DNA from: Thermosulfurimonas dismutans | Lineage (GTDB): Bacteria > Desulfobacterota > Thermodesulfobacteria > Thermodesulfobacteriales > Thermodesulfobacteriaceae | Assembly: GCF_001652585.1 (NCBI RefSeq) | Contig: NZ_LWLG01000006.1 | Coordinates: forward strand, 1-32,000 | Direction of reading: 5' to 3' | Length of the DNA: 32,000 nucleotides | Shown here: positions 3,084 through 32,000 of the stretch, piece after piece | How the letters are laid out: every line of letters starts with the position of its first letter | Position numbering within the stretch: the first letter of the stretch is position 1 | Notes under the pieces: generated by a model | What the model was told of the DNA's origin: nothing | Databases searched by the model: none | Seen by the model: only the letters and a program-made list of their open reading frames with translations | Translations under genes and position numbers: made by a program

Positions 3084-3410
3084 TTAGCTAGCACCCCATA
3101 CCTGAAGTCCCGATCCCGTTCCGAATGGAAATAACCCCCACAGGCCTACCTTATAAAGTTGAATATCCGTCTGAGGAAAAAGGCTTGAGGTGAGGCCCAG
3201 GAGTCCAGGGTAAGCCCTAGAGCCACCTATCTGTAGTGTTCTTTCGTAGAAGCCGTTTCCCTTGTCATGGGGATGTTTCTTGAGGTGGATGGCGCGGTGT
3301 GCCAGAGCCAGGCCATTAAAGATGGAGGTGAGGAGGTTTTTAGGGGTGAAGTTTTCCCAGTTCTGGATTTCCTCTAGCAATTCTTCGGGGAAGGGGTTAT
3401 GCTTTTTCAT
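3084..3410 (-). pseudogene. IS256-family (mutator-type) transposase, N-terminal fragment
   Basis: GGAGGTGATACC precedes ATG 3410 (MKKHNPFPEELLEEIQNW...). LALAHRAIHLKKHPHDKGNGFYERTLQIGG resembles the N-terminal NG.YER.L region of IS256-type transposases. After about 65 aa the sequence stops looking like protein and ends at ~108 aa, against ~400 aa for intact enzymes. Confidence 0.45.
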
Positions 3411-3558
3411 GGTATCACCTCCGTTTGTAGTTTTTTCCTTGTGGAGGGGCCCCACTAGGGGCTCCCTCTCCTTTTATCCCCCGGACACAAAATTTTGAAT
3501 ACCACCCGGAAAGTCAAAGTTGATCAAAAACGAATACTGGCGGTTATTAGGGCCAGGT

Positions 3559-21103: not shown

Positions 21104-22620
21104 AAAAGGGCAAAGTCTATCTGGTAGGCGCAGGCCCGGGAGATCCAGGGCTCATCACTCTCAAGGGTATCAAGGCCTTGAACAAAGCCGAGGTGGTGGT
21201 CTACGACTATTTGGCCAACCCCAAGTTACTCTCGCACGTTCCGCCGGAGGCTGAAAGGATCTATGTAGGCAAGAAGGGAGGCTGTCATACCCTATCCCAG
21301 GAGGGCATAAACCGGCTTCTGGTAAAGAAGGCCCTAGAGGGCAAGACCGTAGTGCGGCTCAAGGGAGGAGATCCCTTCATCTTCGGTCGAGGGGGGGAGG
21401 AAATCGAGGCTCTATTGGCCGAAGACATTCCTTTTGAAGTCATCCCGGGAATCACCTCGGCCTTTGCCGTTCCGGCCTACGCCGGCATTCCAGTAACCCA
21501 CCGGGAATACACCTCCACCTTGGCCCTCATTACCGGACATGAGGCCGAAGGTAAAGAGGATTCGGCCATCGACTGGGAGGCCCTCGCCCGCATCGGAACC
21601 CTCATCTTCCTCATGGGCATGAAAAACCTGCCCCGTATCTGTGAAAACCTCCTCCAGAACGGCAGATCCCAGGATACTCCGGTGACGGTCATCCAGTGGG
21701 GGACCACTCCCAGGCAGCGGGTGGCGGAGGGAACCCTCTCAAATATCGTGGAGCGGGTTAATGAAGCCGGGCTTTCGGCTCCGGCCATCATCCTGGTGGG
21801 CGAGGTGGCCCGTCTGCGTGAAAAATTCAGGTGGTTTGAGACTAAGCCGCTTTTCGGGAAAAAGGTCGTGGTGACCCGCACTCGGGAGCAGGCCAGTCAA
21901 CTGGTGGAGGCCTTAGAGGAGGCCGGGGCGGAATGCATCGAGATCCCGACCATCAAAATTGTGCCTCCTGAAAGTTTCGAGCCTCTGGATCAGGCCATCC
22001 AAGAGATCGAGACCTTTGACTGGGTGATCTTCACTTCCCAGAATGCTGTTAAATATTTTGGGGAGAGACTCTGGGCTCTCGGAAGGGACGCGCGCAGTCT
22101 ATACCGGACAAAGCTGGCCGTCATAGGAACGGCCACCGCGGCCTCGCTTGCGGAAATGGGTCTCAAAGCGGATCTCATTCCGTCGGAATTCAGGGCCGAG
22201 GGACTCATCGCGGCCTTTGAAAAGATGGAGATTGCCGGCAAGAAGATCCTCCTTCCTCGAGCTGAGGAGGCCAGGGAGATCCTGCCGAAAAAGCTCAGGG
22301 ACTTCGGAGCCGAGGTCAGTGTGGTTCCGGCCTACCGTACGGTCCTTCCCGAAGAGTCCCGGGAGGCTCTACTTTCGGCCCTGAAAGAGGGCGTGGACCT
22401 CATCACCTTCACCAGTTCCTCGACCGCCAAGAACCTCTTCAAACTCCTTGAGGGACACGAATCCCTGCTCGAAGGGGTAGTTCTGGCCTCTATAGGCCCC
22501 ATCACCAGTGAGACCCTTAGAAAACTAGGCCATCCACCGCAGATTGAGGCACGGGAATATACCATTCCGGGGCTGGTCTCCGCCATATTGGATTATTTTT
22601 CTGAGAGTGTTCGAAAATAG
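21100..22620 (+). CDS. cobA-hemD: Bifunctional uroporphyrinogen-III C-methyltransferase / uroporphyrinogen-III synthase
   Basis: N-terminal half KVYLVGAGPGDPGLITLKG...VVRLKGGDPFIFGRGGEE (SUMT). C-terminal ~250 aa is HemD-like (KKVVVTR...WVIFTSQNAVKYF...ITFTSSSTAKN). The last 6 codons (ESVRK plus stop, 22603..22620) are supplied by the inserted IS. Confidence 0.9.
   Translation: MKKGKVYLVGAGPGDPGLITLKGIKALNKAEVVVYDYLANPKLLSHVPPEAERIYVGKKGGCHTLSQEGINRLLVKKALEGKTVVRLKGGDPFIFGRGGEEIEALLAEDIPFEVIPGITSAFAVPAYAGIPVTHREYTSTLALITGHEAEGKEDSAIDWEALARIGTLIFLMGMKNLPRICENLLQNGRSQDTPVTVIQWGTTPRQRVAEGTLSNIVERVNEAGLSAPAIILVGEVARLREKFRWFETKPLFGKKVVVTRTREQASQLVEALEEAGAECIEIPTIKIVPPESFEPLDQAIQEIETFDWVIFTSQNAVKYFGERLWALGRDARSLYRTKLAVIGTATAASLAEMGLKADLIPSEFRAEGLIAAFEKMEIAGKKILLPRAEEAREILPKKLRDFGAEVSVVPAYRTVLPEESREALLSALKEGVDLITFTSSSTAKNLFKLLEGHESLLEGVVLASIGPITSETLRKLGHPPQIEAREYTIPGLVSAILDYFSESVRK
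22592..22602. repeat. Target-site duplication, left copy (ATTATTTTTCT)
   Basis: This 11-mer is identical to the one at 23553..23563. It directly abuts the left inverted repeat of the IS. Confidence 0.8.
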
Positions 22621-23528
22621 TTTTTAAGGAGCAACGAGATATAGAGGAGGGTAGCCAGGAGGTACATATTATAGAGCACAAAAGCGGCCAGTCCTCTCTT
22701 CTGGGCTATTTCTTCCTTTCTTACCCTAAAATGCGAGCCTATTTTCAGTTTTACCGTACCAAACAAACTTTCAATCAGATATCTATTTCGGCCCCATTTC
22801 TCCCAGAAAATTCTGGAATCTTTCCGCAGAGGATGTTTTACCTTCTGCCTGAAGGTTTCTTTTACTTTTATGGCCGGTTTTAATCCAAGCTCTACAAGTT
22901 TTTCCATGACCTTGAGACTATCATAGCATTTATCTGCTATAAGACATTCGGCTTTAAAAGTGACCGGATCAATCTCTGTCAGAGCTTCCAGGAGAAGTTT
23001 TACCTCGCTGGCATAGGGACCTCCGGTTTCAGCGGTAATGACGATTCTTTTTCCGGATGAAGTTACTCCGATTATGGGGACCACTCTTATATGGGCTTTT
23101 ACTTTTCTGATTTCTGAGCCTCTTAAGAATTTTAAAGGATAGAGGTCATGATAACTAAAACCGGTGCCATCAGAGATAAAGAAAAAGAGGTGATGTTCTT
23201 TTGCTAGAAGTTTTCGGGCCAATTCTTGGAGAAGGATTTTCAGGGATTGTTTAGGGAATTTTGAGACTCGGTAGTGGTAGGTAGAAAGGGCGGGTCTTCG
23301 TCCCAATATATCGAAGGCCTCTTCTAGGGCTTCTCGGTAGGATAGATTTTTTAGGGTTTGGTAGAGGAAGATAGAGATAATGAAGGCATCGGAATAAGTT
23401 TTTGGGCGACCTCGAAAGGCCAGAGGCTTTTCATTTATTATAGCTCGGGTTATTTTGAAGATGGTCTTGAGACGCAGTTTGCTTCTTCTCATGTTGGGGG
23501 AGTTAATTCTAGGCTCCCCCAACGTCAA
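22593..23528 (-). CDS. DDE transposase (IS4/IS5 superfamily)
   Basis: Candidate DDE residues lie in FFISDGTGF, LIADKCYDS and NRYLIESLFGTVKLK (YREK-like tail). The ORF-track start at 23528 is a TTG; ATG 23492 (MRRSKLRLK...) is more likely. The stop codon falls in the flanking duplication. Confidence 0.8.
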   Translation of the reverse strand: MTLGEPRINSPNMRRSKLRLKTIFKITRAIINEKPLAFRGRPKTYSDAFIISIFLYQTLKNLSYREALEEAFDILGRRPALSTYHYRVSKFPKQSLKILLQELARKLLAKEHHLFFFISDGTGFSYHDLYPLKFLRGSEIRKVKAHIRVVPIIGVTSSGKRIVITAETGGPYASEVKLLLEALTEIDPVTFKAECLIADKCYDSLKVMEKLVELGLKPAIKVKETFRQKVKHPLRKDSRIFWEKWGRNRYLIESLFGTVKLKIGSHFRVRKEEIAQKRGLAAFVLYNMYLLATLLYISLLLKNYFRTLSEK

Positions 23529-23563: not shown

Positions 23564-23600
23564 TGACAGTCCTTGAGAGGGTGTTATCTTAGACCCTGGT

Positions 23601-23676
23601 GGGCCGCTAGCTCAACTGGTAGAGCAATGGACTCTTAATCCATAGGTTGGAGGTTCGAGTCCTCCGCGGCCCACCA
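23601..23676 (+). tRNA. tRNA-Lys (anticodon CTT)
   Basis: Acceptor stem GGGCCGC/GCGGCCC, anticodon arm ATGGA CTCTTAA TCCAT, T-arm GGAGG TTCGAGT CCTCC, discriminator A plus CCA. Confidence 0.9.
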
Positions 23677-24192
23677 GCAATTCCTTGCCTCTCTAGGGCT
23701 CAAATTTGTCCCAGAATCGATTTTTTTACCCATTTCTTGGCGATTTCGGGATCTTCTTGGGCGGCTAGCTTGATCTTTATCGTTTTCGTTTCTTGTCAAT
23801 ACCGGAATCCCTAAAACCCTAGCCGAAGCCGCAATAAAAATGTCGCTCCACCTGCGGCGAAACTCCCCTCCGGTTTTCTTTTTTACCCTGAAAGCCAGGT
23901 CCGCCGCCGTCTCGCAAATTTCTTCCGTGGAATGAATTACTTCGACTTCCGCCAAAAAGCTCATCAAATCATTTTTAAGAGCTTGTTTTTCTTCTGCCGA
24001 AAGAGATTCTTCCTCTTCTATCAATTTGACCCATAGAAGAAGCTCGGTAAGAGTGGCAAACGAAATAAAGATGCGAAATTTGTCGGGGAAGTCTTTGGGT
24101 AGGAAATAGGTTTCTCCTCGGAGGTAATTGTTAACGACATTTGTGTCGGCTACAACTTCGATCAACTTCCCCAAAGAGTTTCCTTCTGCCAT
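23635..24192 (-). CDS. PIN-domain (VapC-like) ribonuclease; 3' end anomalous
   Basis: A strong SD (ACGGAGGAA) lies 10 nt before ATG 24192. The PIN acidic residues appear in VVADTNV, TLTELL, WSDIFIAASA and LTRNENDKD. After ~aa 140 the ORF becomes an Arg-rich low-complexity tail that reads 42 nt into tRNA-Lys (see findings). Confidence 0.7.
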   Translation of the reverse strand: MAEGNSLGKLIEVVADTNVVNNYLRGETYFLPKDFPDKFRIFISFATLTELLLWVKLIEEEESLSAEEKQALKNDLMSFLAEVEVIHSTEEICETAADLAFRVKKKTGGEFRRRWSDIFIAASARVLGIPVLTRNENDKDQASRPRRSRNRQEMGKKIDSGTNLSPREARNCWWAAEDSNLQPMD

Positions 24193-25004
24193 TCTGTTAT
24201 TTCCTCCGTACTTCTAGCAGAGGCCACCTCTTGGAAAATGCCCTCAAACCTTCTGAGCTCCTGCGGACGCTTCCTTGCTCTCTCTAGATCTTCTCTGCTT
24301 GTGATACCGTAAGGCTCAATAGCCTTGAGCTTGAAAGAAAGGATACGAAATGTGGTGGGATCTACCAGAGCTGTTCCATAGGCCCGCACTGTTTTCCTAA
24401 GATACCGGCAGACTTCTTCTTCTAGCCCCAGAGGATAACTGACCGAGATTTCTTCCCCCAGCAGGGTTTTAAGGGTAAAAGTACGTCTGTTCGGATGAGT
24501 GTCGATTTTCTTGATCGTCCCCAAAAGGACTTTGTCTTCCTCAAACGGTTCTTTTCTTGCTTTTTCTACCGCTTGAAAGAAAGTTTTAGCAGAAACCGTG
24601 GTTTTTCTGTTCCCAAGCATATCCACAGCCTCAATCGCTTCCCAGTCTTTATTGAAAAGGCCCTGCATTTTGGCTATACGCAAAATTTTACGGGCATAAG
24701 TTTTCTGATTTCCGTTGTTCATGGCTACGAAAACTCCGTAAACCTCTCCCCAAAACCACTTTTCCAGTTCTTCTGTAAACAGTTCTGATTGATCTTCATT
24801 ACTGAAGAGAAGACCCGTTGACCCCTCTTCAATTCCCACAAAAACAGGACGGAATTTTCTAAAAAACGCTTTGTAAGTTGACGGGGCCTCTTCTTTAAGC
24901 AGAGAAAAAAGCCCCTTCAGGGCTTGGGCTACCGTAGAAAGGTGCTCTAGAGGGATAGCTCCCCGCAGCCGACCTTTAAGGATGAGCTTAAATTTAGGTT
25001 CCAT
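24162..25004 (-). CDS. Hypothetical 280-aa protein, upstream partner of the PIN gene
   Basis: The ORF overlaps the PIN start by 31 nt. I recognise no family or motif. The composition is protein-like throughout. No SD precedes ATG 25004. Confidence 0.6.
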   Translation of the reverse strand: MEPKFKLILKGRLRGAIPLEHLSTVAQALKGLFSLLKEEAPSTYKAFFRKFRPVFVGIEEGSTGLLFSNEDQSELFTEELEKWFWGEVYGVFVAMNNGNQKTYARKILRIAKMQGLFNKDWEAIEAVDMLGNRKTTVSAKTFFQAVEKARKEPFEEDKVLLGTIKKIDTHPNRRTFTLKTLLGEEISVSYPLGLEEEVCRYLRKTVRAYGTALVDPTTFRILSFKLKAIEPYGITSREDLERARKRPQELRRFEGIFQEVASARSTEEITEWQKETLWGS

Positions 25005-25019
25005 GAATCTAATTCAAAC

Positions 25020-25213
25020 ATCCTTTCCCAAAATGTTATCCTCTTCGTGTCGAAACTGCAAGTTAAGAAATGAAAAGTTTTCGAAAAAATTCCCCAATCC
25101 TTGGCCCGGTTGAAGGCATAGCGCACGGTGGCCAAGGCTATTTCGATGCTTCGAGGGCTCCTTTCCACATCCTGCATGGCCTTCTTGAACTTTTCCAGAA
25201 GGAAAGGGGGCAC
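25020..25213 (-). pseudogene. Tyrosine recombinase (integrase) N-terminal SAM-like fragment
   Basis: FLLEKFKKAMQDVERSPRSIEIALATVRYAFNRAKDWGIF resembles the core-binding/SAM-like helix pair of phage integrases. It is preceded by an in-frame stop. There is no catalytic domain downstream. Confidence 0.35.
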
Positions 25214-25267
25214 TACAGGTCTCTAGAAGATTCATTTTTTTGGAATCTGGTGTCCTGTCATACCCAA

Positions 25268-25303: not shown

Positions 25304-28300
25304 TTAAGGGTTCATTTTTACCCATTCTTCAGATAAAACTTCGGCCTGCTTAAGTACCGTCTGCGTGGCTTCTTCCTGTTTGTCCGGGGGGTAGCCGTAT
25401 TTACGAAGGGTCCGTTTCACCAACACTCTCAAATAGGCCCTTACGTTTTCGCGCTGGGCCCAGTCCACGGTGACATTCTCTCGTACCAGGCGCACCAGCT
25501 CCTGGGCGATCTGGCGCAAAGTTTTATCTCCCAAGACTTCCACCGCGCTCTCGTTGGCCGCTAGGGCATCGTAAAAGGCCACCTCTTCCTCGCTTAAACC
25601 CAATTCTTCCCCTCTCCGGTCGGCCTCACGCATCTCGCGGGCAAGCGCAATCAGCTCTTCAATGACCTGGGCGGCTTCAATGGCGCGGTTCTGATAGCGA
25701 CGAACAGCGCGCTCAAGCATCTCGGAAAAACGCCGGGCCTGAACCACGTTTTTGCGCCGCCGGGTGCGGATTTCTCCCTGCAAAAGTTTGCGCAAAAGTT
25801 CCACCGCTAGATTCTTTTGAGGCATATCCCGCACTTCCGCCAGGAATTCCTCCGAAAGGATGGAAATGTCCGGCTTTTTAAGGCCTGCGGCGGCAAAAAT
25901 ATCCACTACTCCCTCAGGGGCCACGGCCCGATCCACCAACTGGCGGAGGGCGTGATCCAATTCTTCTTCGGGACGGGCGTCAGAAGGTGAACGTTTCACC
26001 AGGGCGGAGCGTACGGCCTGAAAAAAGGCCACGTCGTCACGGATGCGTAGGGCCTCTTCATGAGGAACGGCCAGGGCAAAGGCCTTAGAAAGTTCAAGCA
26101 CCGCCTTGACAAAACGTTCTTTTCCATCCGGCTGGGCCAAAATATGTTCCTGTGCAGCGGGAAGGAGGGCCAGACGTTCTTCAGGAGCTCCGGTTTTCCA
26201 GGCCGACCAGTCAAAGCCGTGGAAAAGGTCACAACAAATTTCGTATTTCTCCTGCATGACCGCCACCGCTTCTTCCTGATCAAGGGCCGTGCGGCCTCTA
26301 CCTCCGCTTTCGGTATAAACCGCAAGCGCTTGTTTTAATTCGCGGGCCAGGCCAATATAGTCCACCACCAGCCCTCCGGGTTTGTCCCGGAAGACGCGGT
26401 TCACCCGGGCGATGGCCTGCATGAGCCCGTGGCCGCGCATGGGTTTGTCAATGTACATAGTATGAAGGCTCGGACAATCGAAGCCCGTAAGCCACATGTC
26501 GCGCACGATTACCAGTCTCAAAGGATCGTTTGGGTCACGAAAACGCCGGGCCAGGAACTCCCGTCTTTCTTTGTTGCGGATGTGGGGCTGCCATTCCGGA
26601 GGATCCGAAGCCGAACCGGTCATTATCACTTTAATTACGCCTTTATCGTCATCCTCATGGTGCCATTCAGGACGCAGGCGAATAATCTGGTGGTAAAGAT
26701 CAACGCATATGCGACGACTCATGCAAACGATCATGCCCTTGCCATCGAGGGCTTCCAGACGACGCTCAAAATGCTTCACTATATCTTCGGCGATCATGCG
26801 GAGGCGTGGTTCCGCCCCCACAACGGCTTCAAGTTGGGCCCATTTGGTTTTGAGTTTCTCTTTGCGCTCGACCTCTTCTCTCTCAGTAACTTCCTCAAAT
26901 TCTTCGTCGATTTTGGGCTTTAGCTCCTCGGGTAGCGCAAGCTTTGCCAGCCGGCTTTCGTAGTAGATGGGCACCGTCGCGCCATCTTCTACGGCTCGCT
27001 GGATATCGTAAATGGAGATGTAGTCGCCAAAGACAGCTCGCGTGTTGCGATCCTCAAGCTCAATCGGTGTTCCCGTGAAAGCAATAAAAGAGGCGTTGGG
27101 TAAGGCATCCCGAATATGGCGGGCAAAACCGTCAATGAAATCGTACTGACTGCGATGAGCTTCGTCGGCCATGACCACAATGTTGCGTCGGAGAGAAAGT
27201 AGTGGATGACGGTCGCCTTTCTCGTCAGGAAAGAACTTTTGAATGGTAGTGAAGATGATACCTCCGGCTTCTCGTGAAAGAAGCTCGCGCAGGTGGGCCC
27301 GACTTTTGGCCTGAATAGGCTCCTGGCATAGAAGTTCTTGGCAGCGAGAAAAAACTCCAAATAGTTGATCATCGAGATCGTTTCGGTCGGTGAGTACCAC
27401 CACCGTAGGATTTTGCATGGCCGGTTCACGAATGATGCGCCCAGCATAGAAGACCATGGTCAAGCTTTTGCCGGACCCCTGCGTATGCCACACTACCCCG
27501 ATACGCCGGTCGCCGGGCCGCCCACCCTGGCCCCGCACTTCATAACGGCCTATTTCTTCTCTCACGCGCAAGCCTTCGTCTTGGGTTAACGCGGCCGCCC
27601 TCAGAGTCTCCCGCACCGCTACGCGCACGGCATGGAATTGGTGGTATCCAGCCACTTTTTTGGTGAGTCGACCGCCGTCGTCTTCATAAACCATGAAATC
27701 CCGGATCAGTTCCAAAAAACGCCCCGGCTCGAAAACACCCTTAAGAAGCACTTCAAGTTGGGGGACGCCTTCGTCCTCCACCCGCTCGCCCGAGATCGTG
27801 CGCCAGGGTTTGAACCATTCCCGCCCGGCGGTCAAGGTACCCATTCTGGCTTCCAGCCCGTCCGAAATGACTAAAAGTTCATTGAAGGTAAAGAGAGTAG
27901 AAAGCTCCACTTTGTAAGTCTGGAGTTGCTGATAAGCAGTCCAGATGGTGGCTTCTTCGTCCGCCGGATTTTTCAATTCGATGATGACTAGCGGAAGCCC
28001 ATTTACAAAAAGCACTATGTCCGGCCGGCGGGTATGGCGGCCTTCGGTAACGGTAAATTGGTTGACGGCCAGGAAGTCGTTATTTTCGGGATCGTCAAAG
28101 TCTATTACGCGCGCCTGGGCACCGGCTATGGAGCCATCCTCCCGGCGATATTCCACCGTGACACCGTCCACGAGCATTCGGTGGAAGGCCCGGTTACGAG
28201 CCTCTAAGGTGGCGCCGGGAGGGTTTACGAGCTTTCGGAAAGCCTCATCTAGGGCCTCGACAGGAAGTTCCGGGTTTAGCCGGGCCAGAGCATCCTTCAG

Positions 28301-28459
28301 ACGTTGTGGGAGAAAGGGCTTCCGATAATCGTCTCGCTCGGCGAAAGGCTCCCCGGGGGCGATCTCCGGCCCGTGCTTTATTTGCCAGCCTAGGGATTCG
28401 AGCCAGGCCAGCGCCGCCGATTCAACTTCGGATTCAGCCATTTTATAAGGATTACTCAC
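25304..28459 (-). CDS. hsdR: Type I restriction enzyme, R subunit
   Basis: 1051 aa. The N-terminal nuclease core is [22 protein letters not shown] (D...E.K). Walker A is [14 protein letters not shown]. The DEAH box is [11 protein letters not shown]. The C-terminal helical domain is typical. The GTG start overlaps the upstream stop as GTGA. Confidence 0.95.
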
Positions 28460-29151
28460 GATTGTTGCTCCTTGTTCGATTCTATAAACGCCTGGAGATA
28501 ACTTTCATAGGCTCTTAGATCCAAATAAAAAAGCACCTCGCTAGGCCTATATTCCAAAATATCTCCCAAGACATTTATACGAACGTATTCGCCATTTTCC
28601 TCATCTACGTATTCATTAAATACAGAGTTATCTTCGTATTCCAACGGTTTTTCCGGTTCAGAGAAAGGGAACCGATGGACTGTAAAAAGGAAATGTACAA
28701 TTGCGTCTACAGCCCTAGCAACAAGAAAGGCATGGACCTTATCAAGACCTTGAAAGTCTGGTCCCTTGCCATGAGATGCGAAACCATAAGTATTCCTTAA
28801 CTCAACTATACTTTGAACAACAGTTTGAAGGCTCCCGTTTAACTTACGTATTGATTCGTTTGCTTGTTCTTCTCTAATTACATAGTTTGGTACGAGTTGG
28901 AGAGCGTCAAGGGAGGTTTTAAAAAGTTTGGGAAGCTCCCATTTTTCTTCGTATGGAATACCTCTCTCAGAAAGAATGGCTTTGCATACACTCTCAAGGA
29001 GAGTTCTAGCCAAGTCAAACACCAGGCCTGGGTTAGCCTTATTCAAAGCATCTTCAAGAGCTTCAATTTGTTCGTGAATATGAGTAAAACCGGATTCACT
29101 TGCTTCTCTGGCTCCATACATTACAAATTTAGTAAAACCCCTATTGTTCAC
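28456..29151 (-). CDS. Abi_C-like (abortive-infection C-terminal, HEPN-like) protein, 231 aa
   Basis: GTG 29151 lies 5 nt after GAGGAAAG; ATG 29121 is an alternative start. [20 protein letters not shown]...LPKLFK and [15 protein letters not shown] match my recollection of the Pfam Abi_C family (RN......HG motif). Not verified by HMM. Confidence 0.55.
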
Positions 29152-29259: not shown

Positions 29260-30900
29260 CTAACACTCTTCTTCTGCGACCACCTGAAGAGCAACTTTAT
29301 ATCCCATTCCTTGCAAAAACCTCGCATTTTGCACAAGATTTAATTGACTAAAAAATGGAAGTAAAGATGTTACATCGCTTCCGATTTTCTTGCTAATAAT
29401 TACATAAGTAACCTCATAACTCGAAGGATTTGGTCTTTGTGAAGCATCAGGAATCAATTCTAAAAACCTCTCTCCGTTATCCATAGTTGCTATTTTTTCA
29501 CGTATTTTCTCTCGAACAGAACTATCTTGTAAAAACACTCTCGCAGATACTGTTCCTTGAGCAAATAAATGACTTAAAGTAGCGGATCTTGTTTTCTTTT
29601 TAACGTGAATAATCTGCTTTTTATCGGATAACAAATCGCAAAATTCTATAGAAGATACAGCATCTGTAGGCTTAATAAGAATTTTATCTAAACAGATAAA
29701 ACTATCATCTTCTTGAGCTACACGTAGATTATATTCAGATTCTCGCTCTCCAGTTCTAGCAGTAGGTAAATTATAAACTGGAGGAGGTATTGACTGGACA
29801 AAACTTTTTACGCGTTCGGCAAAGCTACTGTCAATTTCGAACCATTTTCCCTCGATTAAAACATATAAGCGACCTTCATGTATTATTTCCCACACAATGC
29901 AATTGAAAAGTGACCACTTATCCTGAAATTGTTCATTATTAATCCATCGGACTGAAACTCTATAGTTTTTTAATTTTTCAACTGTTAGGTTATTTGTCTT
30001 GTCTCCAAGTACATTTAGATATTCTTCAATATCAAGATCGTCGTACTCTTGTTGTCTTGTTCCGGTAATACGAAATTTGTCTATGGATTGCCAATCAACA
30101 ACTTCAGGTGGAGCTAAGTGAAGTTTTTCTATATTTTTGTTTTTTATTGCCTCCTCTAATTTAGAGTTTAGGAACTTAATTAGACTTAGATCTCTTACTT
30201 CGTTTAAATAGTCTACCCAGCCGAAATATTGTTTATATCGATTATCATAGTAAGCCTCTAAAATTTGCTTGCACTTTTCTCCAAGCTGATCAATTGTGAT
30301 TTGTGCAGTAAAAGTCAGAGCATCAGCTCCAGTTAATCGCTTTGCAAAAGCTTCATCTTCAGGCTCTCCTGTTACAGCCCGAAGTAAATCTCTCGAAACA
30401 TCTAAACCAAAAACTCCTAAATCTGCTCCTCGACTTGTTTGTTTTCGGGTAGCAAGCATCATGTCTTCATAAGTTCTCAAATCTAAGCTGCGCAATCTAT
30501 TCGGATGAATTCGATTTAGAACTACTTTTAGACCAAAATTAAGCTCATAACAATCTGGCTTTAAAAGATTACGGCCATAACCAAAGGTAAACGCAAAAAT
30601 CCTTTTTTCAGTTTTTATAAAAAGTACACCTGAAGCATTTGAAACACTTATCTCATTAAGATCCAAATCTAATGAGGGTTGAATAAACTCGATCCATTTA
30701 GGAGGTCTACTTAACGAAGTTGAATACCAAAACTCTCCTTCAAAAGGAAGTTCCGACCTAAGAGGAATTCTCTTAAGTGCATCAGGATTTCGTAATGCGT
30801 CCTGAAAAGAACTTATGTTATCTTTCAGCAGCAAGACCGTTAGCTTTTGTGTTTTTTTCTTAGTTGAGCTCACAAAATTTCCCCACAAACTTTTCCGCAT
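29260..30900 (-). CDS. Large uncharacterised protein (~547-564 aa), possibly TIGR04141/DUF6119-like
   Basis: Long low-GC ORF. Candidate starts are ATG 30954 (ORF track), ATG 30900 and GTG 30873; all overlap the hsdS 3' end. Motifs: KLTVLLLKDN, IFAFTFGYGRNLLKP, FGLKVVLNRIHPNRLRSLDLRT, and C-terminal SIEFCDLLSDKKQIIHVKKKTRSATLSHLFAQG. The family name comes from memory only. Confidence 0.6.
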   Translation of the reverse strand: MRKSLWGNFVSSTKKKTQKLTVLLLKDNISSFQDALRNPDALKRIPLRSELPFEGEFWYSTSLSRPPKWIEFIQPSLDLDLNEISVSNASGVLFIKTEKRIFAFTFGYGRNLLKPDCYELNFGLKVVLNRIHPNRLRSLDLRTYEDMMLATRKQTSRGADLGVFGLDVSRDLLRAVTGEPEDEAFAKRLTGADALTFTAQITIDQLGEKCKQILEAYYDNRYKQYFGWVDYLNEVRDLSLIKFLNSKLEEAIKNKNIEKLHLAPPEVVDWQSIDKFRITGTRQQEYDDLDIEEYLNVLGDKTNNLTVEKLKNYRVSVRWINNEQFQDKWSLFNCIVWEIIHEGRLYVLIEGKWFEIDSSFAERVKSFVQSIPPPVYNLPTARTGERESEYNLRVAQEDDSFICLDKILIKPTDAVSSIEFCDLLSDKKQIIHVKKKTRSATLSHLFAQGTVSARVFLQDSSVREKIREKIATMDNGERFLELIPDASQRPNPSSYEVTYVIISKKIGSDVTSLLPFFSQLNLVQNARFLQGMGYKVALQVVAEEEC

Positions 30901-32000
30901 CTTTGATGCGGATTTGACCGGAAATGAGTTTGGGAAGGAGGGTGTCGCGTACACCTGATAATGTTTGCGATTCTTTGTTGTTAGATTTTATTTTCAAAAA
31001 TAGGGGGTCAACGGTTTTTTCAAATTGGATTAATATTTCTGAAGGAGCTTCAGGAATATAGAAATGTTCAAAGGCTTCTTTAGAAACTCTTTGACGGCCA
31101 GATGTTCCTTTCATAGTTTTTACCGCAAAGTCTCTCAATTTTTCCCATCGAGACAAACAATAAATAAAATATGATCCAGCTCTTTTAGGTGAAAACACCA
31201 AAAATTCCGTTGATCCCCATCCTACTTGATCTTCTTCTAAAAAGTTAACTAAAGTTGTTTTGCCGTTTTCTAAACAGGGAGTTATGCGTGCAAATAAAAC
31301 GTCACCATTTTTAAACTTACTTCCGGAAGTAAATTCTCGGAGCTTGGGGGGAGATAGCAATTCCAATCCCGATGTGGGCAAAGATGCCATATCTACATAA
31401 GGAGCAATTTTCCCTTTGGAAAGGGAATATTTAGGATTTATCTCAATAATTTCTGTAAAAGAACTAACCCTCCACCCCTTCGGTATCGGGCCGAGGGGGG
31501 AATCCTCAAAGGAATCAGGGAAGAGCCGGGCGATTTCGGGAGAAAGTTTGGGGGTGGAGATGGCGCGGCGGCGGGCGGCCTTTTCCGCCAGGGCGTCGGG
31601 AATGGGGTTTCCGGCCTTAAGGGCGTTGTCAATCACCGGGGCAAAGTCCACAAACCAGGACTTAAAGATGGCCTTCGCCATCTCCTCCAGCGTCTCATTC
31701 ATCCGCCGATTAAGCTCTATCTTGTCATCCAGCGTGCCGAGTATGTGAGCGATGGCTTTTTGTTCGGGGAGGGGTGGAAGAGGAATTTGAATCTCATCAA
31801 ATGATTTCATGGTAATAGTATCAAATACCGTCCCATAAGAAACCGCATGCATTTCCTGTATAGAGGCTTTTAAAGCGTAGTAGAGATAATCTTGATCTAT
31901 TTTGTTTGTGTCTTTAGGAATCAAGCCATAACAAGTTTGATTAAACGCCATATTTTCGCCCAATTGGGCAATAGCTCCCACTGTTCCGCGTGCAGTAATA
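30860..32000 (-). CDS. hsdS: Type I restriction enzyme, S (specificity) subunit; 5' end beyond the window
   Basis: The frame stays open to position 32000 (..ITARGTVGAIAQLGENMAFNQTCYGLIP). Central conserved region: LPPLPEQKAIAHILGTLDDKIELNRRMNETLEEMAKAIFKSWFVDF. The second target-recognition domain and the C-terminal repeat LLPKLISGQIRIKDAE are present. Confidence 0.9.
   Translation of the reverse strand, partial: ITARGTVGAIAQLGENMAFNQTCYGLIPKDTNKIDQDYLYYALKASIQEMHAVSYGTVFDTITMKSFDEIQIPLPPLPEQKAIAHILGTLDDKIELNRRMNETLEEMAKAIFKSWFVDFAPVIDNALKAGNPIPDALAEKAARRRAISTPKLSPEIARLFPDSFEDSPLGPIPKGWRVSSFTEIIEINPKYSLSKGKIAPYVDMASLPTSGLELLSPPKLREFTSGSKFKNGDVLFARITPCLENGKTTLVNFLEEDQVGWGSTEFLVFSPKRAGSYFIYCLSRWEKLRDFAVKTMKGTSGRQRVSKEAFEHFYIPEAPSEILIQFEKTVDPLFLKIKSNNKESQTLSGVRDTLLPKLISGQIRIKDAEKFVGKFCELN

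Follow-up and report, generated by a model that had tools for sequence, protein, structure and literature searches.

What does a large protein without a recognisable motif do when its gene directly precedes, and overlaps, a VapC-like PIN gene? The question is raised by a gene pair of Thermosulfurimonas dismutans at positions 23,635 to 25,004 of contig NZ_LWLG01000006.1 (assembly GCF_001652585.1), whose first 32,000 nucleotides (nt) are the stretch analysed here and are referred to as the window. Within VapBC, the largest of the toxin-antitoxin families, the antitoxins are seen as small proteins that bind DNA and fall into four fold classes. An earlier reading of the window, made from the sequence alone (the sequence-only reading), had proposed that the 280-amino-acid (aa) upstream protein could be a sensor/antitoxin fusion in an undescribed PIN-based toxin-antitoxin or abortive-infection pair. 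We find that the two genes form a genuine and conserved PIN module, a very rare one, whose partner protein is structurally new. An antitoxin role of this partner is plausible; a sensor or defence role is speculative. The gene structure, the identity of the PIN protein, the partner's lack of a database match, its predicted fold, the strict linkage of the two genes and the pattern of their decay are all shown by the analysis.

Layout and linkage of the pair

The pair and its putative expression signals are arranged as follows.

24162..25004, minus strand: gene of the 280-aa partner, the founding member of its family (open reading frame (ORF) call; WP_068670094.1, 'hypothetical protein' at NCBI)
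23635..24192, minus strand: PIN ORF of 185 aa (ORF call; WP_084270983.1, 'VapC family toxin' at NCBI)
24203..24207, minus strand (CCTCC on the plus strand): Shine-Dalgarno sequence GGAGG, 10 nt 5' of the PIN ATG at 24192 and within the 3' end of the partner gene
25033..25061, minus strand: putative promoter-like block TTGCAG-17 nt-TAACAT, 5' of the partner gene, spotted by eye

The two ORFs share 31 nt (24162-24192), in agreement with the overlap that the sequence-only reading had called, and the GGAGG that it placed 10 nt before the ATG, inside the upstream gene, can be read directly at 24203-24207. This Shine-Dalgarno sequence is also kept in a sister-strain contig (L003) and in a relic of the module (L034). 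A second possible PIN start, TTG at 24165, would shorten the overlap to 4 nt (TTGA) and yield an N-terminus resembling those of other family members, whereas the ATG at 24192 is preceded by the better Shine-Dalgarno sequence, and the correspondingly long overlap recurs in L001. The promoter-like block was not picked up by a consensus promoter scan; it is kept in L003 and in L002, which is 78% identical.

Directly 3' of the partner gene, every homologue for which downstream DNA is available has a PIN gene of the same subfamily, in some cases decayed.

L001: partner 57% identical to that of the window, PIN of 148 aa directly downstream
L004/L005: partner 29% identical, PIN of 148 aa directly downstream
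L006: partner 26% identical, PIN of 137 aa directly downstream
L007/L008/L021: partner 25% identical, PIN of 136 aa directly downstream
L009: partner ~22% identical, PIN of 136 aa directly downstream
L010-L014: partner ~20% identical, PIN of 138 aa directly downstream
L032: partner ~22% identical, PIN of 104 aa directly downstream

The sequence-only reading depended on such a conserved linkage, which was found at all loci with downstream sequence and, given its strictness, marks the pair as a genuine module. Beyond the window, the two genes overlap by 16-34 nt or by 4 nt, abut directly or are separated by a 1-nt gap, and the pairwise identities of partner and PIN across loci are correlated (r = 0.81). 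Counted by lineage, the PIN gene is intact in five, mutated or deleted in three and reduced to a stub in one relic. The PIN subfamily matches the partner in rarity and is seen with no other partner; a word-index search with the window PIN recovered only that protein and the PIN of L001.

The rarity of the family is apparent at every scale of search. An exhaustive HMMER scan of 1.84 billion representative proteins with the partner gave nine hits, one of which (P0008) is a spurious repeat protein, and a profile search of a set of 5.8 billion proteins added three members, from candidate division WOR-3 bacteria. A single-protein scan of GTDB genomes returned no relative. Scanning with the back-translated C-terminal motif of the partner gave five chance matches in genomes, none in viral contigs and 12 matches in metagenomes, of which only L021, from the same organism as L007, is a member. 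No family member was found by tblastn against phage and plasmid records, nor in viral collections. The family so far comes mostly from thermophile and uncultured lineages. A conserved gene of 243 aa upstream of the WOR-3 partner was considered as a possible paralogue of the partner and ruled out (hhalign probability 0.1).

The PIN protein and its large partner

The PIN ORF matches Pfam PF01850 with an E value of 7e-10 and 40 bits (cut-off 23.6), which together with its NCBI name of VapC family toxin upholds the VapC-like assignment of the sequence-only reading; its matches to the NCBIfam VapC models are weak. The ORF falls into two dissimilar parts.

23779..24192, minus strand: PIN-like coding region, residues 1-138 (Pfam and family profile)
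23635..23778, minus strand: unrelated tail, residues 139-185 (47 residues) and stop, outside the family profile match

Against a family profile built without the window sequence, residues 12-138 of the window PIN cover positions 3-124 of 140, so that the last 16 conserved positions are lost. The closest full-length relative, the 148-aa PIN of L001, is 63% identical to the window PIN over residues 1-137 only, and the family C-terminus (..kDF..fe.lGL.I..) is replaced in the window by the 47 unrelated residues, which are also present in L003. The segment past the fourth acidic residue that completes the PIN fold is therefore missing from the window protein; it is present in L001, L006 and L010. 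The final 14 codons of the ORF lie antisense to a tRNA-Lys gene, with an overlap of 42 nt (23635-23676), and because this tRNA-overlapping part is not PIN-like, WP_084270983.1 probably carries a spurious C-terminus. An original C-terminus in another frame (KNRFWDKFEP followed by a stop, frame 0, ~23700-23730) was considered and rejected: it needs a 62-nt insertion, is unlike the C-terminus of the closest relative and lacks the GL-I strand. Within the tail, at 23758-23770, lies a 13-nt near-copy (12/13) of the 5' end of the tRNA-Lys gene (23600-23612). It may have been left behind by the truncation of the PIN gene, or may be chance; its length is too small for an interpretation.

The window PIN nevertheless has all five active-site residues (D16, E50, D117, N135 and D138). 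They align with D6, E43, D99, N117 and E120 in VapC of H. influenzae and R. felis, with catalytic equivalences as given in PMC5499597. The window protein accordingly retains the conserved acidic active site of a PIN toxin. Searched against PDB, the PIN family profile recovered the VapC proteins of H. influenzae VapBC1 (6nkl, 1.2e-14), R. felis VapBC2 (3zvk, 2.5e-9) and S. flexneri VapBC (3tnd, 1.9e-7), and the PIN protein is predicted from these similarities to be a VapC-type ribonuclease of the COG1487 clade. That clade includes tRNA-fMet endonucleases, and those of its members with solved structures are RNase toxins that act alone, several being specific for initiator tRNA.

The partner is a protein of a different kind. 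As the sequence-only reading had noted on seeing no motif in it, it has no sequence-family match: neither the single sequence nor the family profile matched anything in Pfam, NCBIfam, PADLOC, PHROG or the PDB sequences. Members of the family are ~270-300 aa long and 21-57% identical to the window partner over their full length (74% for the truncated P0003). Judged by this identity across lineages and by a confident AlphaFold model, the 280-aa ORF is a real gene of a very rare, unnamed family. The AlphaFold2 model, built on an alignment of 11 sequences, has a mean predicted local distance difference test score (pLDDT) of 83.3 and a predicted template modelling score (pTM) of 0.65, and it divides the protein into three parts.

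24549..25004, minus strand: N-terminal alpha/beta domain, residues 1-152, with conserved G15, P18 and G61-S62
24309..24548, minus strand: central OB-fold barrel, residues ~153-232 (AlphaFold2 model and Foldseek)
24165..24308, minus strand: C-terminal tail, residues 233-280, with F-x-G at 253-255 and a terminal helix at 266-278

Modelled alone, the N-terminal domain reaches a pLDDT of 89.8 and a pTM of 0.87, and Foldseek found no credible PDB match for it (best E 0.039, probability 0.28, TM score ~0.25). The central region is predicted with a pLDDT of ~85-93 (residues 151-240) as a five-stranded barrel (strands 154-168, 175-180, 185-189, 205-214 and 221-231) with a helix (192-200) between strands 3 and 4, the arrangement of an OB-fold, and it can be superposed on known examples. 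Its invariant residues are G162, Y190-P191, L194-E195 and G210. Nearly all of the top 50 Foldseek PDB matches are OB-folds, at E values of only ~1e-3, among them IF1 (4ql5, E 1.1e-3), RPA14/32, SSB and the anticodon-binding domains of LysRS and AsnRS (TMt 0.45-0.68). The OB segment is mildly basic in most members (+2 to +5).

The C-terminal tail is poorly ordered in the monomer model (pLDDT 49-67 over residues 241-280); its helices span 256-261 and 266-278. The last of these carries the family signature [DE]EIT-W---T-WG, the most conserved linear motif of the partner. VapB and FitA place their C-terminal helices in the cleft of the PIN protein (PMC5499597), and a terminal helix that is poorly ordered in the monomer fits binding of this kind; by analogy, we presume the tail to be the PIN-binding segment. 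The only near-full-length structural matches of the partner are two viral metagenome proteins of the BFVD collection, A0A8S5QA00 (annotated DUF6575) and A0A8S5T657, with Foldseek E values of 1e-9 and 2e-8 over 258-283 aligned columns, but TM scores of 0.36-0.41 and a root mean square deviation of ~12 A. DUF6575 has been found in an E. coli anti-phage system (PMC9519451). Since no family member matches DUF6575 (Pfam) or PADLOC at the sequence level, we treat this likeness as a lead only.

Decay of the module and its setting

Damage across the copies of the module falls mainly on the PIN gene. In the window the PIN C-terminus is replaced and the partner is intact. A WOR-3 metagenome-assembled genome (L032, GCA_039803105.1; PIN at 2328-2642) likewise has an intact partner, with an in-frame deletion of 34 aa in the PIN that removes the catalytic Glu, and in L009 (3352-3759) the first catalytic Asp of the PIN is replaced by Gly; the L009 partner is 85% identical to that of L010, its PIN 56%. 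Two of the three WOR-3 genomes thus carry a damaged PIN. Loss of the PIN first, with the partner kept, is what would be expected if the PIN were harmful without its partner, and it lends indirect but independent support to a toxin-antitoxin relationship.

Two further copies are broken more thoroughly. Positions 1-1302 of L003 (Logan SRR26701689) correspond to window positions 23647-25081 at 98% identity, and both genes are pseudogenes there: the partner has a stop in place of Q27, and the PIN carries a frameshift of 1 nt at codon 35 and lacks 157 nt between a pair of GGGTAAAAAA repeats (window 23879-23888 and 23722-23731). The relic L034 (3614-4100; Logan SRR26701711) retains no more than a 130-aa part of the partner, its OB-fold and tail, together with ~5 codons from the start of the PIN; it directly follows a ParM/MreB-like actin gene, a setting that suggests a plasmid- or phage-like element. 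The window module itself is probably decaying, because its PIN has lost the last ~16 conserved residues.

The surroundings of the window module comprise the following features.

22593-23528, minus strand: DDE_Tnp_1 transposase of 311 aa, between cobA-hemD and the tRNA-Lys promoter
23601..23676, plus strand: tRNA-Lys(CTT) (ARAGORN; Rfam tRNA, 74.6 bits)
25304-28459: HsdR of a type I restriction-modification (R-M) system
28456-29151: Abi_C/AbiJ-like gene, between hsdR and hsdS
29260-30954: DUF6119 gene, between hsdR and hsdS
30860-31981: HsdS of the type I R-M system

The module in T. dismutans is horizontally acquired DNA beside a tRNA-Lys gene and a type I R-M/Abi island. Its G+C content is 0.45 over 23-25 kb against ~0.53 in the flanks, and that of the DUF6119-hsdS stretch is 0.35-0.36 against ~0.53 elsewhere. 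Upstream of the tRNA gene lie the housekeeping genes hemC and cobA-hemD, followed by the transposase, which marks the tRNA-Lys locus as a site of repeated rearrangement; an Rfam scan of the region found nothing besides the tRNA. On the other side, similarity to L002 and L003 breaks off ~80 nt upstream of the partner start (~25081-25089), at a perfect 10-bp palindrome, TTTTCGAAAA (25078-25087), that is absent from both, and this site could be the 5' junction of the acquired module. Of the defence-type island that the sequence-only reading had drawn around the pair, the tRNA-Lys gene and the type I R-M system stand, and the integrase fragment could not be verified: at ~25080-25222 it found no support in Pfam, PHROG or plasmid tblastn and remains a visual impression only. 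Across the family, defence-rich settings account for only three of ~6 contexts. In L001 the module is followed by a Cthe_2314-like HEPN gene (2204-2914) and then by tRNA-Thr (3381-3454) on the opposite strand; two family members therefore lie beside tRNA genes, the window module adjoining tRNA-Lys and L001 tRNA-Thr. At the far end of the window, positions 1-2000 have a G+C content of 0.30-0.37 against ~0.53 for most of the window, and may be another foreign segment.

The toxin-antitoxin reading and its rivals

The reading that we favour, with somewhat better than even confidence and by analogy with VapBC, is that the pair is a type II-like toxin-antitoxin system, with the large protein serving as the antitoxin of a VapC-type PIN. 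Such an arrangement is indicated by the combination of a PIN of the VapC clade, the partner-first gene order, the translational coupling, the conserved C-terminal helix, disordered in the monomer model, and the decay pattern. We also count in its favour the patchy distribution of the family (9 hits in 1.84 billion proteins), the low G+C content and the R-M, Abi and HEPN neighbours. Under this reading the PIN would act as an RNase toxin and the large partner as a protein antitoxin that holds the nuclease in check with its C-terminal tail and helix, which would lie on the PIN. The N-terminal domain and OB-fold would replace the usual small DNA-binding domain, and would probably bind nucleic acid or another ligand that regulates or triggers the pair. 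Toxicity, neutralisation through the C-terminus and ligand binding are the parts of this scheme that we infer.

Several observations weigh against it. None of the DNA-binding folds known from antitoxins is present in the partner, the profile of its C-terminal tail shows no similarity to VapB when searched against PDB, and no conserved operator-like palindrome was seen 5' of the partner gene in comparisons of the window with L003 and L002. The isoelectric points of the two proteins (9.2 for the partner, 5.3 for the PIN) depart from the usual pairing of an acidic antitoxin with a basic toxin. In WOR-3 bacteria the pair has a fixed place in the chromosome, surrounded by ordinary genes and coupled to a downstream gene for a membrane protein, and the partner is better conserved there than the PIN, a pattern that could equally reflect a function of the partner independent of the PIN. 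The family comprises ~8 lineages, so the statistics are thin. At the locus of the window, the module may not be functional at all, given that the PIN C-terminus is lost and that both genes are broken in the 98%-identical L003.

Measured against the VapBC systems of the COG1487 clade (H. influenzae VapBC1, R. felis VapBC2 and S. flexneri VapBC), the module has a homologous PIN (E 1e-14 to 2e-7) whose active site is arranged in the same way (D/E/D and the N..[DE] motif), and the same two-gene operon, with the gene in the antitoxin position first and overlapping or abutting the PIN gene; its partner also ends in a conserved C-terminal helix. Most of the differences concern the partner, which at 280 aa is three to four times the size of VapB and no small (~70-100 aa) DNA-binding antitoxin, lacks RHH, AbrB, PhD and HTH domains, having instead an N-terminal domain without a PDB fold match and an OB-fold, and shows no sequence similarity to any VapB. 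Because the toxin domain and operon layout are those of VapBC and the small antitoxin (and, in the window, a complete PIN) is missing, the module is not canonical VapBC; yet it is not categorically new. In the survey of PIN-toxin partners by Matelska et al. (2017), RHH proteins accounted for 29%, AbrB for 24%, PhD for 22% and HTH for 16%, alongside UPF0175, and extended operons with GNAT/PUA or DUF955 proteins were described (PMC5499597); nothing in that survey resembles the 280-aa partner, and full-text literature searches for PIN or VapC with an OB-fold antitoxin returned nothing relevant. The nearest parallels in the same survey are PIN_15 and PIN_17 with PUA-like domains and the PIN-TRAM proteins of PIN.COG4956, which likewise combine a VapC-like PIN with a small beta-barrel of nucleic-acid-binding type in operons that depart from the small-antitoxin rule (PMC5499597). 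Their modules are as a rule part of the same polypeptide as the PIN, or else occur with GNAT or HTH proteins (PMC5499597), whereas here the OB-fold lies on a separate upstream protein with an extra domain and a C-terminal helix, and there is no sequence relationship between them and the window family. The two viral BFVD proteins resemble the partner over nearly its full length, but with low TM scores and no sequence match. CapRelSJ46 exemplifies proteins in which the antitoxin part also senses phage, but it fuses this part and a RelA/SpoT-type toxin in one polypeptide; the likeness is in concept only, a large antitoxin moiety with a possible signal-receiving domain, and no homology was found. 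The sequence-only interpretation stands in placing the large partner outside the described families and in linking it to the PIN; it has to be amended for this copy, whose PIN is C-terminally truncated.

Three other explanations bear on these data. The OB-fold protein could be the RNA-binding specificity or adaptor subunit of a two-subunit ribonuclease that is active as a complex, bringing a substrate such as tRNA or ribosome-bound RNA to the PIN. The best OB-fold matches are indeed binders of RNA or single-stranded DNA (IF1, SSB, RPA and the LysRS and AsnRS anticodon-binding domains), the OB segment is mildly basic in most members, the WOR-3 and L004/L005 pairs lie among ordinary chromosomal genes in conserved synteny, and PIN domains are joined to PUA and TRAM RNA-binding modules in other families (PMC5499597). 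Even so, those matches are weak (E ~1e-3), and the invariant residues Y190-P191 and L194-E195-E196 lie at the junction of strand beta3 and the helix, off the usual ligand-binding face. The closest solved relatives of the PIN are toxins that act alone and need no adaptor, an obligate complex fits poorly with three lineages in which the PIN is inactivated and the partner kept, and the distribution is far too sparse for a housekeeping enzyme; we therefore consider this explanation unlikely. Rather unlikely, in our judgement, is that the pair is an abortive-infection or defence system in which the partner is both sensor and antitoxin and a phage product acting on its N-terminal domain or OB-fold frees the PIN. 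The window module abuts a type I R-M operon with Abi_C/AbiJ-like and DUF6119 genes, a HEPN gene comes next in L001, a type II methyltransferase lies nearby in L007, and both near-full-length structural matches are viral, one of them annotated DUF6575. On the other hand, PADLOC matches neither the partner, the PIN (E up to 1) nor any other family member, about half of the contexts are not defence-like, the viral matches are structurally loose and lack sequence support, and no member of the family was found in the viral, phage and plasmid collections searched. Its fullest form, an undescribed PIN-based abortive-infection system in which a ligand-sensing antitoxin releases a tRNA-cleaving VapC on meeting phage nucleic acid or protein, appears unlikely to us.

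The remaining explanation concerns the window copy alone and is compatible with any reading of the family: that it is an inert relic, a piece captured beside tRNA-Lys, with an inactive PIN, heading for loss. We regard this as a serious possibility, if one that falls somewhat short of even. Of the 140 profile positions the PIN misses the final 16, and an unrelated tail of 47 residues runs on over the tRNA. The near-identical L003 has a nonsense codon in the partner and, in the PIN, both a frameshift and a deletion of 157 nt; L002 and L003 cease to resemble the window shortly upstream of the partner start; and L034 shows that relics of the family exist. Yet neither window ORF is interrupted, the partner has its full length, the PIN keeps each of its five active-site positions, the Shine-Dalgarno sequence and promoter-like block are intact, and loss of the final strand is not necessarily fatal to PIN activity.

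Because the family is tiny and the window copy partly decayed, the value of the toxin-antitoxin reading lies in the family, with its intact pairs in L001, L006 and L010, and not in the window locus or its organism. If the antitoxin role of the large partner is true, the family would represent a fifth, structurally different way to control a VapC nuclease, and would offer a test case for bulky antitoxins as receivers of signals.

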